This document shows, in pieces, positions 40,208 through 45,899 of a DNA stretch of 49,751 bases. The position numbers and the translations under genes are program-made. Source of the DNA: Promethearchaeati archaeon (lineage in GTDB: Archaea > Asgardarchaeota > Heimdallarchaeia > JABLTI01); the NCBI GenBank assembly GCA_013166835.1, contig JABLTI010000033.1, positions 1 through 49,751 on the forward strand, read 5' to 3'. The notes under the pieces were generated by a model. It was not told where the DNA came from, did no database searches, and saw only the letters and a program-made list of their open reading frames with translations. Numbering within the stretch: the first letter of the stretch is position 1; every line of letters starts with the position of its first letter.

Positions 40208-41122
40208 TTGTTTAAAAAATTAAAATCTGGTATAGGATCTGCAGTAGAAAAGCTCACTCAAAAGGAATTAACTGAAAAAAATCTTGAGAAGCCATTATAC
40301 GACCTACAATTAGCATTAATTGGAAATAATGTTGCAGTTCCTATTGCTGAAAAAATTACCAAAGAAGTTGAACAAGCATTAGCTACTACTAAAGTTGGGA
40401 GATTAACTTCTAGGAAGAAAATTACTTATGATGCTTTAAGAAAAGCAATAATTGATATTTTAGAATCTCCGGAAGAAGAAATTGATTTATTGGGAATGAT
40501 CAAAGGGAATAAGAAAAATGGGGTAACAACTGTACTTGCGATTTTTGGTCCAAATGGAGCAGGAAAAACAACCACTATCGCTAAACTAACCCAACTTCTA
40601 ATAGACAACAATTTAACAGTAGTGATAGGTGCTGGGGATACATTTCGAGCAGGAGCTATTGATCAAATTAGTAAGCATTGCGATAAATTAGGTGTGCGAA
40701 TAATCAAACAAGATTATGGTTCAGATCCAGCAGCAGTAATCTATGATACAATTCAACATGCTAAAGCAAAAGGCATTGATGTAGTAATTGCTGATACTGC
40801 TGGAAGATTACAAACTAACAAAAATCTCATGCGTGAACTTGAAAAAATCGTGAGAGTAGCAGAACCAGATTTGAATATTTTTGTAGCAGATGCCCTCACA
40901 GGAAATGATGCTGCTTATCAAGCAGAGGAATATGATCGAATGGTAGGAATTGATGCCATTATTTTAACGAAGGTAGATGCAGACCCGAAGGGAGGGGCTG
41001 CTTTATCAGTTGTTTATGCAGCTAAGGCTCCAATCATTTACATTGGTGTTGGTCAGAAATATTCTGATTTTAAACCATTTGATTCCGCATGGTTCGCTGA
41101 AGCGATTATACCTGAAAAATAG
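40208..41122 (+). CDS. ftsY: SRP receptor FtsY (NG domain only)
   Basis: GPNGAGKTTT, DTFRAGA, DTAGR, TKVD, GVGQ. Confidence 0.96.
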   Translation: MFKKLKSGIGSAVEKLTQKELTEKNLEKPLYDLQLALIGNNVAVPIAEKITKEVEQALATTKVGRLTSRKKITYDALRKAIIDILESPEEEIDLLGMIKGNKKNGVTTVLAIFGPNGAGKTTTIAKLTQLLIDNNLTVVIGAGDTFRAGAIDQISKHCDKLGVRIIKQDYGSDPAAVIYDTIQHAKAKGIDVVIADTAGRLQTNKNLMRELEKIVRVAEPDLNIFVADALTGNDAAYQAEEYDRMVGIDAIILTKVDADPKGGAALSVVYAAKAPIIYIGVGQKYSDFKPFDSAWFAEAIIPEK

Positions 41123-41144
41123 AAATAAATTAGGAATGAAAAAA

Positions 41145-41342
41145 ATGCCAGTAATAACTGTTGAAGGACCACCAAGAAGTGTGGAACAAAAGAAAGAATT
41201 AGTAAAACTACTTACAGATGCATTAAAGAAAGCATATGGATATTCTGAGGATTTTGCCCATATTGTTGTTGTAATAAAGGAAAATCCCCCAGAGAATATT
41301 GGTTCTAATGGTAAATTATTATCAGAGATGAAGGAATCTTGA
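41145..41342 (+). CDS. 4-oxalocrotonate tautomerase family (DmpI-like)
   Basis: Catalytic Pro1: MPVITVEG...EQKKELV...I.E.P.EN.G.NG; true start 41145 rather than 40977. Confidence 0.92.
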   Translation: MPVITVEGPPRSVEQKKELVKLLTDALKKAYGYSEDFAHIVVVIKENPPENIGSNGKLLSEMKES

Positions 41343-41348
41343 AGGATT

Positions 41349-42308
41349 TCATTTCTCTGATTTCCACGTATAACTAATCTGAGTCCAATCTTTCACATAG
41401 CCTTCTGACAAGTAAAGGTTCATTGCAGGAATATTTTTTAAATTGACATTCAAACTTGAACTCTTGTAGCCTTCATGGGTCAGTGTTGATTTTATGTGAT
41501 GTATAATTTTCCTTCCGATTCCTTTACATCTGTAGCTGGAGTGAACACCCATAATCCATAATTGACCATTTTTCTCACCATGTGATTCACGAACTATGGA
41601 AAATGCAATGAGTTTGTTATTAGATAAAACTCCTATTGAAGCAGGTTCAATTATGGGAAAATTATCTGCTAAAATTACGTCTTTAAAATAATCGAACATT
41701 TCATCATCAGTCTTATCAGATAACCATAAATCTTTAGATTCTCTAAAAGTCTCGAGAAAACACTGATAGAATTTACTCGAATCTATTTGACTGATTGGAA
41801 TTACTTCAAAGTTTTCAAAGCGTTCAGTAACCTTAGTTTTTTGTGCTAGTTCTTGTCTCATATGACAATTTCGATCAATCAATGACATCCCAATTGCTTG
41901 ATAATCTACTTTCTTCTTGTCTTCATATTCCTTGAAACTTAGTTCAACTCGTGTTAATCCTTTTGATATTCCATATTCAATAGCTTTTGTTACCAGGTTT
42001 TTAGATATTGAAAGATTATTTCTATATTCTTCCAAAATTATTGGATGACCATTTAAAGCCCAAGGATTTATTTCAGCCTCAGTTGCAGTCATTTGTACAA
42101 AGAAAACCCAACCTATGATTTTCTTATTTACTTTTGCAATTATAGCAGTAGGGGAATATTTCAAATCTAAATTTTTAAACCAATTCACTAATCGATCCAC
42201 TTGAAGACTAGGTCTTTCTTTTTTCCAAATGGAAATTGTGAATTCCGCTAATTCCTGAAGAAGTTCTTCAACCCATTCTTGTATTGTTATGTTGACAGTT
42301 TCAGCCAT
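41349..42308 (-). CDS. Tandem GNAT acetyltransferase
   Basis: C-terminal MGVHSSYRCKGIG, N.PAMNLY...GY; GGAGG SD. Confidence 0.88.
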   Translation of the reverse strand: MAETVNITIQEWVEELLQELAEFTISIWKKERPSLQVDRLVNWFKNLDLKYSPTAIIAKVNKKIIGWVFFVQMTATEAEINPWALNGHPIILEEYRNNLSISKNLVTKAIEYGISKGLTRVELSFKEYEDKKKVDYQAIGMSLIDRNCHMRQELAQKTKVTERFENFEVIPISQIDSSKFYQCFLETFRESKDLWLSDKTDDEMFDYFKDVILADNFPIIEPASIGVLSNNKLIAFSIVRESHGEKNGQLWIMGVHSSYRCKGIGRKIIHHIKSTLTHEGYKSSSLNVNLKNIPAMNLYLSEGYVKDWTQISYTWKSEK

Positions 42309-42540
42309 ATTATCAATCCTCCAAAAGGAAGTACAGAAGGTAGTGAGTTAATTGTAAAGGGCATGTGAATTATTGTGTTTTACAAAGAAAATCATCCATT
42401 AGGATTACACCAATTAACTATCTACAAAATGAAATTCAAAAGATATTTCTTTCGGAGATAGTCACAAGATGATTGTTTTTGTTGCAAGAACGAATTCGGG
42501 AAACTACACTTAACATAAACACCTTCAACTTACCTCCAGA
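42309..42540 (-). promoter_or_regulatory. Candidate structured leader/attenuator with uORF
   Basis: SD-preceded uORF (stop 42436; ATG 42516, GTG 42522 or TTG 42528), mutually exclusive inverted repeats, anti-SD. Confidence 0.5.
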
Positions 42541-42608
42541 TTTTGTAAGAAAAAAATAAAGAGATGATACTAATAAATCTATTCGTAAAACATCGAATTC
42601 ATTAAAAC

Positions 42609-45600
42609 CTATTCTTGATTTTCAGCTTCTTGGTTTTCATGATTGATCATGAAAGCATCACTTTTCTTTTTGCGCCAGCGTATACCTTCACGTACCCATT
42701 TCACCTCATCTTCTCGAGATAATTTAGAGAGGAAAAATGGAGCAATGTAGTAAACGAGTATACAACTTATTATTGAACCAAAAATAATGAGGATATAACG
42801 TATAATGATATTATTCTTGTTATCAGTAGGATCCAAAGGATCGGTTTCGTCAAGTAATTCTTGACCATCGTCAATACCATCAGAATCACTATCAGCAAGT
42901 AGAGGATTAGTGCCTAAAATGATTTCATCACCATCGTTAACACGATCATCGTCTGTATCTGGATCATGAGGGAGAGTATTATAAACGAATAATTCATTAT
43001 AATCAGAAATTCCGTCTTGATCCGTGTCTGCTATATTAGCAAGAGTATAATAGATAGCAATCTCCTCAAAATCTGTGAGCCCATCCAAATCAGTGTCATT
43101 TACTAAAGGATTTGCTTTATGGAGAAACTCTTCAACATTAGAAATGCCATCATTATCAGCATCTAATGCAGAATCATCTATTACTGGATCAAAACCATAA
43201 AGCCATTCGAAATAATCATCCATTCCATCAAAATCTGTGTCGATTAAAGTGGGATCAGAGCCATAGTCCAATTCTACATTGTCATCTACAAGGTCTTCAT
43301 CTGTATCTTTTTTAGCTGGATGAGTGTTATAAATGTAAACCTCATCCCCATCAGAGAGACTATCTCCATCGGAATCAACTATATGAGGATCAGAACCATA
43401 GACATGAATTTCAAGATAATCATTCAAATCATCATAATCAGTATCAGGATTTGTGGCATTGGTATGTAATACTATGATTTCATCATAGTCGCTTAAACCT
43501 TCTCCATCGGTGTCATACAAGATGGGGTTTGATCCATAAACAAGCTCTTCATTATCCCAGAGTTTATCTCCATCCGTATCGGTATTTTTAGGATCAGTCC
43601 ACAGTAAGAACTCTTCGTAATTGGTCAGCGTATCACCGTCGAGATCTATGAGGGCATCTGAAGCATTAAGAGGATCTAGATGCATATAGTATTCATACCC
43701 ATCTGACATCAAATCATCATCTGTATCATTATCAAGAGGATTGCAATTAATTGTTATATCAGTTTTGTCAGATAGTAAATCACCATCCGTATCCCATAAT
43801 GTTGGATTAGTAAAAACAAAGCCTGTTGCATTAGCTGCAGGATTAGCAGGAGCATATATTCCATAAACTTCCACCCCATCCATATAACCATCTTTGTCTG
43901 TGTCAAATACTGCGGGGTTTGTTCCCCACACCATCACTTCCTGGTAATCATCAAGGCCATCGCCCTCGTAATCAACTTGTCCGGGATGCAGATTCCATTG
44001 GTATTCATAAAGGTTGATTAATCCTTCTCCATCTGGATCTAAGGCGGAATCATTAACATTAATATCTAAATAATCCCGATAGAGATATTCATACGCATCA
44101 GACATTGTATCATTATCCGAATCCCCTGAATTTGGATCAGAACTTAAATCATTGATCTCTAAACCATCGTCTAACGTATCCCCATCCGTATCAGTATTCA
44201 TTGGATTTGTTAGATGTATAATAACCTCATCATAATCACTCACAAAGTCATCATCAGAATCATTATCGTTTGGATATGTGTTTGCTAGGAACTCATCAAT
44301 GTTCAATAAAGAATCGTTGTCTAGATCCCCTAGGGAATCATCTGAATATGGATCTAATCCATAATGAAATTCATATCCATCCAACATTCCATCTGCATCC
44401 TCATCAGGATTGAACGGATCAAAACCATTGGCAATTTCCTCTCCATCTAGCATTTGGTCATCATCGGTGTCAGGATCAAATGGATCGGTACCATATATTC
44501 CTCTTTCTTCATAATTCATTAATCCATCTTCATCAGCATCATTCCATCCTTTTCGATAGTAAATTGTTCTAACATTATCTACTTGATCCACCCAAGCCAT
44601 ATGGATATTCCCATCTGAATCTACAGTTAAATCAGGATATTGTGAATAACCATGAACTGGATTCAGTAATACGTCGCCAGACCAAGCATTAGTTGTTGGA
44701 GAAAAAGTCTTCATATACAATCCTGCAGTAGTTCCTCCAATGTATTGAACCCAATTCCAGAGTAGAATCATTCTACCAAAACTATCAACTACACCAGTTA
44801 TGTGACAATTTTGAGCTGCTTTCGTGGAAACTGCTATTAGATCCGTTGCATCTCCAGAGGTAAGTTTTTGATACATAATGGAATATTCATCTTCACCAGT
44901 AGGAACATTGTATATCAAGTGAAGGCTTCCATCTTCTGAACTAAATATACTTGGTTTAGGAACATAATATATATTTGAGGGGATTTCAAATATTTGGCGG
45001 AATCCCGTCCAAGTGAATGGTGCTGTTGCATTCTCTTTCCAATACAAATCATATTGGATAAAGTATAATCGCTCGTAGTAGTTTATCCGATAAGAGTATA
45101 CACTTCCTTGGTAGAAAAATGATCTTTCTTGTCCCCCAACATTTGCTATATGAAAGTTATAATTAGAAGTAGATAAAGAATAAGAATAAGACTCATCAAA
45201 AGCTTGACTACTCCAGGTATTGGATTCTTCATTATATTTTGAATAAAAGAAGTCAATATCATATAGACTTGTGGAAGCAACATAGACAACCTTTGGCTTA
45301 CTCTCATTAGTAAGTTGTAATCGAGGATTTTCACCGTAACCTACAATCGAGGGAGTATTCCAAGTTTCGTTCTCATACATTCGATATTTTATGCTTGCAT
45401 CATGAAGCCAAACTAAATGTATGCGACCTTCTGGATCGGTTTTTACATCCATTAAACCAAAGTATTCACTTGCGGTATCACCAATTATGACCCTATCACT
45501 CCATACACCTGTCAGATTATTTTTCACATTATGAAATAGTACCCACTCATCATTATATCGTCCAGACCAAAACACATGAACATTTTCTTCTTTGTCAAGT

Positions 45601-45899
45601 GCGATTTTAATATCATTTAAGGGATTATCTGGTTCTATTACCTCAGAATCTTCCCAACCATAGGATCCGAGAAGTTCATAATCAGGAGTTAAGTATGTAC
45701 CAAAGTTATTGTCTCTTCCAGCAGTTTCACTAAAATAATTTCCTCCATCCCAATCATTTGGTGTTTCAGATCCATCTTCTAGTTTTACAATTTCAATTAT
45801 TGCTTGAGAGGATACATTAGTGTCTGTGAGTAATGTGCCAACAAATATGAAATTTAATAAAAGAATACCGAAGAGAAGTTTTTTGGACCATTTTAACAT
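42609..45899 (-). CDS. Large surface protein: beta-propeller plus Ca-binding thrombospondin type-3-like (DxDxDG) repeats plus C-terminal TM
   Basis: Signal peptide; 'D..G.IH..W' blades; more than 20 'T.P...DTD.DGL.D..E' repeats; TM and basic tail. Confidence 0.88.
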   Translation of the reverse strand: MLKWSKKLLFGILLLNFIFVGTLLTDTNVSSQAIIEIVKLEDGSETPNDWDGGNYFSETAGRDNNFGTYLTPDYELLGSYGWEDSEVIEPDNPLNDIKIALDKEENVHVFWSGRYNDEWVLFHNVKNNLTGVWSDRVIIGDTASEYFGLMDVKTDPEGRIHLVWLHDASIKYRMYENETWNTPSIVGYGENPRLQLTNESKPKVVYVASTSLYDIDFFYSKYNEESNTWSSQAFDESYSYSLSTSNYNFHIANVGGQERSFFYQGSVYSYRINYYERLYFIQYDLYWKENATAPFTWTGFRQIFEIPSNIYYVPKPSIFSSEDGSLHLIYNVPTGEDEYSIMYQKLTSGDATDLIAVSTKAAQNCHITGVVDSFGRMILLWNWVQYIGGTTAGLYMKTFSPTTNAWSGDVLLNPVHGYSQYPDLTVDSDGNIHMAWVDQVDNVRTIYYRKGWNDADEDGLMNYEERGIYGTDPFDPDTDDDQMLDGEEIANGFDPFNPDEDADGMLDGYEFHYGLDPYSDDSLGDLDNDSLLNIDEFLANTYPNDNDSDDDFVSDYDEVIIHLTNPMNTDTDGDTLDDGLEINDLSSDPNSGDSDNDTMSDAYEYLYRDYLDINVNDSALDPDGEGLINLYEYQWNLHPGQVDYEGDGLDDYQEVMVWGTNPAVFDTDKDGYMDGVEVYGIYAPANPAANATGFVFTNPTLWDTDGDLLSDKTDITINCNPLDNDTDDDLMSDGYEYYMHLDPLNASDALIDLDGDTLTNYEEFLLWTDPKNTDTDGDKLWDNEELVYGSNPILYDTDGEGLSDYDEIIVLHTNATNPDTDYDDLNDYLEIHVYGSDPHIVDSDGDSLSDGDEVYIYNTHPAKKDTDEDLVDDNVELDYGSDPTLIDTDFDGMDDYFEWLYGFDPVIDDSALDADNDGISNVEEFLHKANPLVNDTDLDGLTDFEEIAIYYTLANIADTDQDGISDYNELFVYNTLPHDPDTDDDRVNDGDEIILGTNPLLADSDSDGIDDGQELLDETDPLDPTDNKNNIIIRYILIIFGSIISCILVYYIAPFFLSKLSREDEVKWVREGIRWRKKKSDAFMINHENQEAENQE

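Follow-up and report, generated by a model that had tools for sequence, protein, structure and literature searches.

A conserved upstream open reading frame and two alternative RNA pairings in the leader of a tandem GNAT gene of Heimdallarchaeia: a candidate translation-coupled switch

The minus-strand leader of approximately 230 nt between the start of a tandem-repeat GNAT N-acetyltransferase gene and the gene upstream of it was analyzed in a 49,751-nucleotide stretch of a Promethearchaeati archaeon genome (Heimdallarchaeia; assembly GCA_013166835.1, contig JABLTI010000033.1, positions 1 to 49,751; hereafter the window). The leader contains a conserved upstream open reading frame (uORF) led by a Shine-Dalgarno sequence (SD); the translation initiation region of this uORF (segment A) is complementary to two alternative partners, one within the uORF (segment B) and one just 5' of the GNAT SD (segment C). 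Segments A and C co-vary among the leaders compared, and the choice of partner is predicted to affect the accessibility of the GNAT SD (segment D). On the basis of the sequence comparisons and folding models, we regard the leader as probably representing a uORF-coupled RNA switch. To our knowledge, cis-regulatory RNAs are scarce in archaea, and a full-text search of the literature retrieved no switch from archaea that combines a leader peptide or uORF with alternative structures.

An earlier inspection of the letters of the window (the sequence-only reading) had proposed an attenuator of the ermC type for the same interval: helices between segments 1 and 2 and between segments 3 and 4 would keep the GNAT gene off, and a ribosome stalled at segment 1 would permit a 2:3 helix and free the GNAT SD. 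Its segments are referred to below by these numbers; loci carry L numbers and genomes G numbers. The features of the leader are as follows.

42570-42577, minus strand: TATA-like box TTTATTAG, candidate promoter of the leader, approximately 36 nt upstream of the uORF SD; the g1 orthologs have a TATA-like octamer at the aligned positions
42504-42545, minus strand: segment A, comprising the short 5' untranslated region (UTR), the uORF SD, the GTG start codon (42522-42520) and the first ~6 codons; it has two alternative partners
42436-42522, minus strand: uORF of 28 codons plus TGA (42438-42436) with GTG start, reading MFMLSVVSRIRSCNKNNHLVTISERNIF; recognized by its SD spacing and by a frame open in 9/9 representatives
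42453-42477, minus strand: segment B, uORF codons 16-23 (CAUCUU...UAUCUCCG), complementary to the uORF start codon and SD (RNAalifold helix)
42415-42464, minus strand: B:B' hairpin, an extended form of the 1:2 helix, with the uORF stop near its tip and the B' arm at 42425-42415 (minimum free energy (MFE) and local fold)
42323-42357, minus strand: segment C, which adjoins the GNAT SD on the 5' side and includes segment 3 and CUUCC; it pairs with A or locally with the GNAT SD
42318-42322, minus strand: segment D, the GNAT SD GGAGG, 9 nt before the ATG (read from the sequence)
41349-42308, minus strand: tandem-repeat GNAT N-acetyltransferase gene, 319 aa (Pfam, NCBIfam, AlphaFold2 (AF2) model, Foldseek)

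All carriers of the leader possess a small ORF of 22-28 codons approximately 190-230 nt upstream of the GNAT start. In the window, its SD is the GGAGG at 42537-42533, and the GTG at 42522 begins 10 nt after it; the GGAGGTAAGT-like SD sequence and a start codon 10 nt past GGAGG are kept in the g1 orthologs. The sequence-only reading had recognized the SD-led frame that ends at 42436, and this part stands; its start codon does not. The ATG of that reading lies 16 nt after the SD and a TTG 4 nt after it, both outside the 7-11 nt GGAGG spacing of the genome, and the GTG is the homologous start across the orthologs. SD-led initiation is indeed used in this genome: GGAGG is most frequent 7-11 nt ahead of start codons, and 432 of 2065 long ORFs have an SD-like 4-mer, as against 109 for a control window. 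In the metagenome-assembled genome of the window, the 16S rRNA 3' end, sought in order to read the anti-SD, was not found.

The uORF is open in all nine lineage representatives (shuffling chance P 0.06-0.15 each), and the other two frames contain 0-6 stops each over the same span. Between L003 and L004 the uORFs differ by an in-frame 6-nt indel. In a second Heimdallarchaeia family (AB_125-like), where the leader has a different sequence, a 7-nt length difference puts the B motif in another frame in L029 than in L032 and L026; despite this frame change the ORF stays open and ends 10-16 nt past the conserved RNA motif. Since the motif is read in differing frames and the ORF is still open, the act of translation, not the peptide sequence, appears to be kept. 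The peptide residues conserved in the genus, (H/Q)L..(I/T)S, correspond exactly to the codons that pair with the SD/start region; towards the N-terminus and in the middle, both the sequence and the length of the peptide vary freely, the peptides of the genus and of the second family are unrelated, and no Pfam family matches the uORF peptide. The peptides are polar and charged (e.g. ...NKNNHLVTISERNIF), with no hydrophobic stretch, and no amino-acid run is common to the 15 uORFs that could serve as regulatory codons, the hallmark of trp/his/leu-type attenuators. Judging from these sequence comparisons, selection appears to act on translation of the frame and on the RNA, not on the peptide. Among the 40 listed of 72 differences to relatives' contigs of at least 80% likeness (three runs from three studies), none fell into 42450-42538.

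GNAT loci were gathered from relatives, from the GTDB genome collection and from metagenome contigs. The uORF leader precedes the tandem-GNAT gene in all eight genus genomes that possess the gene, at five metagenome loci (four distinct; L043 equals L044) and, with different sequence, at three loci of the second family. The other three of the eight metagenome loci comprise L042, where the leader is absent and GNAT directly follows another gene, one locus without upstream DNA, and one distant partial locus. A covariance model of the element from A to B gave one match per genome in 8 of 83 Heimdallarchaeia genomes, all of them in the genus of the window and every match directly upstream of GNAT; these are the same eight genus genomes in which GNAT was found at E ≤ 1e-30. 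Three genus genomes (69-85% complete) have neither the uORF element nor GNAT, and a class-wide protein search in the 83 genomes with inspection of 13 further loci revealed no new uORF-bearing lineage. In G008:C46 (L011/L062/L069) the uORF is broken by a 2-nt deletion (stop at codon 11) and GNAT by a frameshift with stops. The genes flanking the uORF-GNAT unit vary among loci. At L007 (G001:C58), a tRNA-3'-end-like sequence ending in ...GGGCCCACCA lies approximately 150 nt upstream of the uORF SD, which indicates that the unit stays together while its flanks change.

Both pairings of segment A are strong: in 13 of 13 leaders the A:B duplex reached −16.5 to −21.6 and the A:C duplex −14.3 to −23.5 kcal/mol, and duplex energies for a control stretch were −6 to −13 kcal/mol (except −19.4 in L032). 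A:B is the RNAalifold consensus of ten genus leaders, with 94.6% of the cells paired versus 35-52% when the partner was slid; shuffles matched this paired-cell score because both strands are nearly invariant. Segment B ends 15 nt before the uORF stop; in g1, 12-15 nt separate its anti-SD from the stop. The same A:B architecture recurs in the second family with unrelated sequence. A:C is the MFE pairing in 11 of 13 full leaders, while L041 prefers A:B and L032 folds otherwise; it extends over approximately 25-33 bp from the 5' UTR to about codon 6, with many changed pairs in the A-anchored table, and the extended duplex of the window amounts to −26.5 kcal/mol. Among 9941 minus-strand windows, C ranked 21st and B 390th as partner of A. 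The best partner of A in the whole window besides its own antisense is a plus-strand stretch at 45261-45325 (−34.7 kcal/mol), antisense to the gene upstream of the leader, and may be a chance match.

The A:C pairing in addition shows covariation. Cognate A:C duplexes had a mean of −20.3 kcal/mol and non-cognate duplexes one of −14.5 kcal/mol, which placed the cognate set first among 720 permutations; with extended windows the values were −24.6 versus −16.2 kcal/mol and 1 of 100000 permutations was as good, the A:C duplexes in this analysis ranging from −21.7 to −27.0 kcal/mol (z −2.7 to −4.3). In a column count of the five closest leaders, 93.8% of the A:C cells were paired versus 45-57% when slid, with three compensatory pairs, and 5 of 500 shuffles were equal. 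Judged by these comparisons, A and C co-vary, which suggests that they reside on a shared RNA. The sense duplex exceeded the antisense duplex in 13/13 leaders for A:C and in 11/13 for A:B, and A:C includes 1-7 G-U pairs on the sense strand; both features point to a constraint on RNA and not on DNA repeats.

According to the folding models, the partner of A affects whether the GNAT SD can be reached. In the local fold of C and D of the window, the probability that the SD is unpaired is 0.01, the 3rd percentile of the 422 SD-led genes of the genome, and the C:D helix is kept in five of five close relatives, so that sequestration of the GNAT SD holds for the window. When A:B was forced, the probability of an unpaired GNAT SD was 0.00-0.27 in 13/13 leaders; when A:C was forced, it rose to 0.36-0.97 in 12/13 (0.71 in the window). 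Masking A as by an initiating ribosome left the GNAT SD at most 0.26 unpaired in 12/13 leaders. With a mask on the middle of the uORF or on its stop region the GNAT SD stayed open, and it opened further in L041 and L040; these are the leaders in which A:B is competitive and in which masking of B opens the GNAT SD. Folds of the growing transcript paired the uORF SD with B first and with C once C was made in 7/7 representatives, L041 returning to B at full length. The B:B' hairpin is stable as a local fold (−23.9 kcal/mol, z = −5.1), and 88.6% of its cells are kept in the five closest relatives; similar hairpins around the stop have z values of −2.1 to −3.1 in five other lineages and are weak in three. 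The fold of the whole 246 nt alone is not exceptional (z = −1.73; 8 of 200 shuffles as stable).

Rfam gave no match inside 42309-42608 even at E values up to 10, and its seven matches in 41000-44000 all lie outside the leader and below the gathering scores. A C/D-box sRNA was considered and rejected: a C-box-like start region exists in L003 and L005 and not in the window, and no Rfam snoRNA matched the leader.

Based on the TATA-like box, the transcription start site (TSS) would be expected near 42546-42544, within the conserved TTACAAAA. The genome-wide profile of TATA positions was flat and uninformative for promoter calibration. A scan for bacterial-type promoters and terminators, which is not designed for archaea, yielded no useful promoter candidate on the minus strand and no terminator-like site there between 42200 and 42700. 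In the second family, the uORF and another gene are arranged divergently; the gap of approximately 70 nt between them contains TTTATAAA 31 nt before the SD. A motif of approximately 22 nt (GCTAATTACACTTAAATAATTG-like) was observed approximately 30-50 nt upstream of the starts of AB_125-like GNAT paralogs (L027, L030, L033, L034, L055 and others); it is kept with or without a uORF and equals segment C at the uORF-bearing loci. Eight other paralog loci of this family are without a uORF.

As to the ermC-type wiring of the sequence-only reading, its elements had been located correctly: GGAGG at 42537-42533, TGA at 42438-42436, segment 1 (ACUAUCU) at 42462-42456, segments 2 (42425-42411) and 3 (42354-42340) with 13 of 15 positions complementary, CCUUC at 42340-42336, CUUCC at 42331-42327 and the GNAT SD GGAGG at 42322-42318; the downstream gene is a GNAT as proposed (Pfam Acetyltransf_1 match). 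The 1:2 and CUUCC:GGAGG hairpins are likewise more than chance, with 93% of the cells paired in the five closest relatives. The 2:3 helix, on which the wiring depends, did not hold: in the five closest leaders 65% of its cells were paired with no compensatory change, 12 of the 15 pairs vary only by breaking, and the helix is absent in L041, an ortholog of 70% identity. In the leader of the window its ensemble probability is 0.0000 (duplex energy −11.2 kcal/mol); forcing it costs 8.2 kcal/mol (−46.7 versus −54.9 kcal/mol for the MFE) and leaves the GNAT SD closed (P unpaired 0.01), and masking segment 1 as by a ribosome directs segment 3 to 42507-42522, in the uORF start region, and not to segment 2. 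A 1:2/3:4 versus 2:3 switch is in consequence scarcely credible. Of the attenuator idea, the conserved SD-led uORF and exclusive pairings that decide GNAT SD access in the models persist; the alternatives are A:B versus A:C, and it is the uORF's own translation initiation region that would be the moving strand.

The uORF-coupled switch would operate as follows. The 230 nt would make up a single regulatory leader for the GNAT mRNA, conserved in Heimdallarchaeia and carrying a promoter-proximal, SD-led uORF; we infer that uORF and GNAT are co-transcribed from a promoter upstream of the uORF and that the uORF is translated. Three competitors, namely the initiating ribosome, B (42477-42453) and C (42357-42323), would contend for segment A. 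In state I, A would be held by B or by the ribosome, C would fold back on D, and GNAT translation would be low; in state II, A:C would form over approximately 30 bp, the B:B' hairpin would enclose the uORF stop, and D would be single-stranded, with GNAT translation on. Because B is transcribed before C, the growing RNA would form A:B first; a ribosome that elongates through B or pauses there would free A for C, and, given the size of a ribosome footprint, a terminating ribosome would cover B, whose anti-SD lies so close before the stop. Translation stress, ribosome stalling and the initiation rate are candidate signals, and the direction of control given here is a putative one. Considerably more doubtful, but still conceivable, is the specific proposal that the pioneer ribosome on the uORF picks the partner of A during transcription and hence decides whether the tandem GNAT is made; the leader would then sense the status of translation kinetically, and possibly ribosome-targeting toxins, by coupled transcription-translation in an Asgard archaeon. 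Heimdallarchaeia, close archaeal relatives of eukaryotes, would in that case use a ribosome-read RNA switch of bacterial style that is differently wired.

Several observations weigh against the switch. A strong C:D helix (percentile 0-3), as in the leader of the window and in L003 and L004, is confined to the subclades of L001 and L003, and elsewhere the helix lies at the 15th to 47th percentile; three leaders are without a strong GNAT SD, and in L003 the GNAT SD is closed in both states (0.03 with A:C forced). Most leaders are in the open state at equilibrium (open as ground state in 11/13). A:B displays no lineage-specific covariation within the genus (rank 259/720), its antisense duplex is equally good in L003 and L004, and B ranks only 390th among the 9941 windows that could pair with A. 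From the MAFFT alignment of full-length leaders, RNAalifold recovered A:B and not A:C, since that alignment places C off by 1-3 nt from one lineage to another; the support for A:C consists of per-sequence duplex optimization, permutation tests and one column count of five sequences. The sample is small, with approximately six lineages in one genus and three loci in another, and the energies are nearest-neighbour estimates for 37 °C, applied to a sediment archaeon. The T6 runs after the uORF in several lineages could end transcripts there. The C motif of the second family also stands before uORF-less paralogs, so that it may be a promoter or operator; a TSS downstream of this motif would remove C from the GNAT mRNA.

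The equilibrium structures suggest a simpler interpretation, in which A:C is a panhandle that stabilizes or processes the mRNA or silences spurious initiation, with GNAT constitutive and the uORF non-regulatory: A:C is the equilibrium structure in 11/13 leaders and pairs the extreme 5' end, and the GNAT SD is open in most of them. A structured leader without sensing leaves unexplained, however, why 9/9 lineages retain a canonically spaced SD, a start codon and a frame open for 22-28 codons, why partner B stands at a fixed 12-15 nt before the stop, and why C is able to sequester the GNAT SD, and we regard it as unlikely. Its own promoter-like box and SD, the C-terminal peptide motif kept in the genus, the strict synteny with GNAT and the T6 runs after the ORF in the L003, L006 and L043 lineages might instead mark the small ORF as an independent gene for a micro-protein working with GNAT, or as a dual-function sRNA, a short transcript with A acting in trans on C. 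Since the conserved residues are those whose codons pair with A, while the remainder of the peptide diverges, since the motif of the second family is read in two frames, the peptides of the two families are unrelated and no Pfam family matches, and since the T runs are absent or weak in L001, L005 and the f2 leaders, this appears improbable as well; for the A:C covariation, a cis element is no worse an explanation than a trans-acting one.

Archaeal RNA polymerase terminates at oligo-T, and T6 tracts occur 5-14 nt after the uORF stop in the L003/L004, L006/L007/L011 and L043 leaders, flanked by the A:B and B:B' pairings; the position of the ribosome on the uORF might thus decide whether the polymerase stops there. 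Such transcription attenuation has little probability, as the tract is degenerate in the window (T4/T3/T4) and absent in L005 and the second family, the T runs lie within the 3' arm of B:B' and are paired with A-rich codons, the covarying A:C helix needs readthrough RNA, and a shared regulatory codon run is missing. Finally, the repeats could act in DNA, either as repeated operators of a transcription factor or as terminal inverted repeats of a mobile mini-ORF element: A is an imperfect inverted copy of C, B repeats C in direct orientation, and the C motif before the uORF-less paralogs of the second family overlaps a TATA-like box. This reading is very improbable in view of the superior sense duplexes (A:C 13/13, A:B 11/13) with their G-U pairs; the element is moreover single-copy in every genome, and a miniature inverted-repeat transposable element with dispersed copies and DNA symmetry was not found, given one copy per genome and the strand asymmetry.

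Long-range pairings that govern a ribosome-binding region are familiar from the coat-replicase interaction of phage MS2 and the tac/fbi 5'-3' pairings of hok mRNA, where the pairing that forms depends on whether an upstream frame is translated and on the order of co-transcriptional folding. The regulated product in these systems belongs to a phage genome or a plasmid toxin mRNA, unlike the GNAT considered here, and the small hydrophobic membrane peptide of a hok-like type I toxin-antitoxin system was not found among the uORF peptides.

The leader shares with the bacterial ermC and cat/cmlA leader-peptide translational attenuators (cf. PMC5499644) a short SD-led leader ORF upstream of the main gene (presumably on one transcript), the main-gene SD in a hairpin, exclusive helices, and the logic that a ribosome on a segment of the leader ORF would redirect pairing and expose the downstream SD. 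It differs from them in that the moving strand would be the SD/start region of the uORF itself, which lies upstream of its first partner, in that the ON helix is a long-range panhandle of approximately 30 bp spanning approximately 190 nt, and in that the lowest-energy state of 11/13 leaders is the open one; moreover, it has no known stalling motif or inducer, an Asgard host, and a gene that is not a recognised resistance gene. The nearest concept, by analogy, is the uORF toiL of the Escherichia coli topAI-yjhQ transcript, for which ribosome occupancy at various positions is proposed to remodel a structure occluding the downstream RBS (ribosome-binding site), and which is described as a general sensor of translation stress and not of one ligand (PMC12121999). 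In contrast to the Heimdallarchaeia leader, toiL is bacterial, coupled to Rho-dependent termination and without sequence relationship, and it is not known to have its own initiation region sequestered by two alternative partners. In Salmonella, a translation-aborting small ORF promotes translation of mgtB by opening a sequestered RBS (PMC8092293); this bacterial system has another topology, and it is not known to have an alternative partner for the RBS of the small ORF. Among archaea, Ribo-seq of Methanosarcina mazei placed 10% of the newly found small ORFs in 5' UTRs as potential uORFs (PMC11456600). Small ORFs in 5' UTRs thus exist and are translated there as assumed for the Heimdallarchaeia leader, whereas no mechanism or alternative RNA structure is known for them from that work.

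The assembly of the window has a G+C content of 33.7%, and the sequencing runs with DNA matching the locus stem from marine sediment metagenomes; among the 22 runs listed, none is recorded as RNA. Read on the minus strand, the GNAT gene starts with the ATG at 42308, and its product matches Pfam Acetyltransf_1 with E 6.2e-17. No NCBIfam match reached the curated cut-off (best rimI, 43.2 versus 86.4 bits; the AAC(6')-Ia model gave 24.3 bits at a cut-off of 265). The catalytic half is similar in sequence to RimI/Naa enzymes. The AF2 model has a predicted local distance difference test score (pLDDT) of 87.8, and its top Foldseek matches are the tandem GNATs MAB_4324, 3tt2, VipF, GlmA and MshD with template modelling (TM) scores of ~0.6. 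According to these models, the protein is a generic tandem GNAT and not a recognised resistance gene product. A homologous-protein search retrieved 21 relatives, several at 57-82% identity. In-frame TAG codons were observed in the GNAT orthologs of L004 (G005; two), L005 (G009; one) and L060/L070 (G059; one); one TAG of L004 stands at the position of a Tyr kept in L003, and the second lies 2 codons from the end. Pseudogenes, assembly variants and TAG read-through are candidate explanations.

The gene upstream of the leader (42609-45899, minus strand) encodes an Asp-rich and repeat-rich protein of 1096 aa that matches bacterial TSP3 repeats; its C-terminus consists of a hydrophobic stretch followed by a basic tail. 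On the plus strand, a 10-bp palindrome with a T-rich tail at 42633-42656 was scored as terminator-like; it lies within the 3' end of this minus-strand gene.

If the leader is indeed a uORF-coupled switch, it would provide a mutationally testable example of translation-coupled riboregulation in an Asgard lineage, and a new attenuator topology with the uORF's own RBS as the strand that switches. It would also indirectly support the use of SD-led initiation and of co-transcriptional translation as means of control in Asgard archaea. The tight control of a lineage-specific tandem GNAT would suggest a costly or stress-linked activity.

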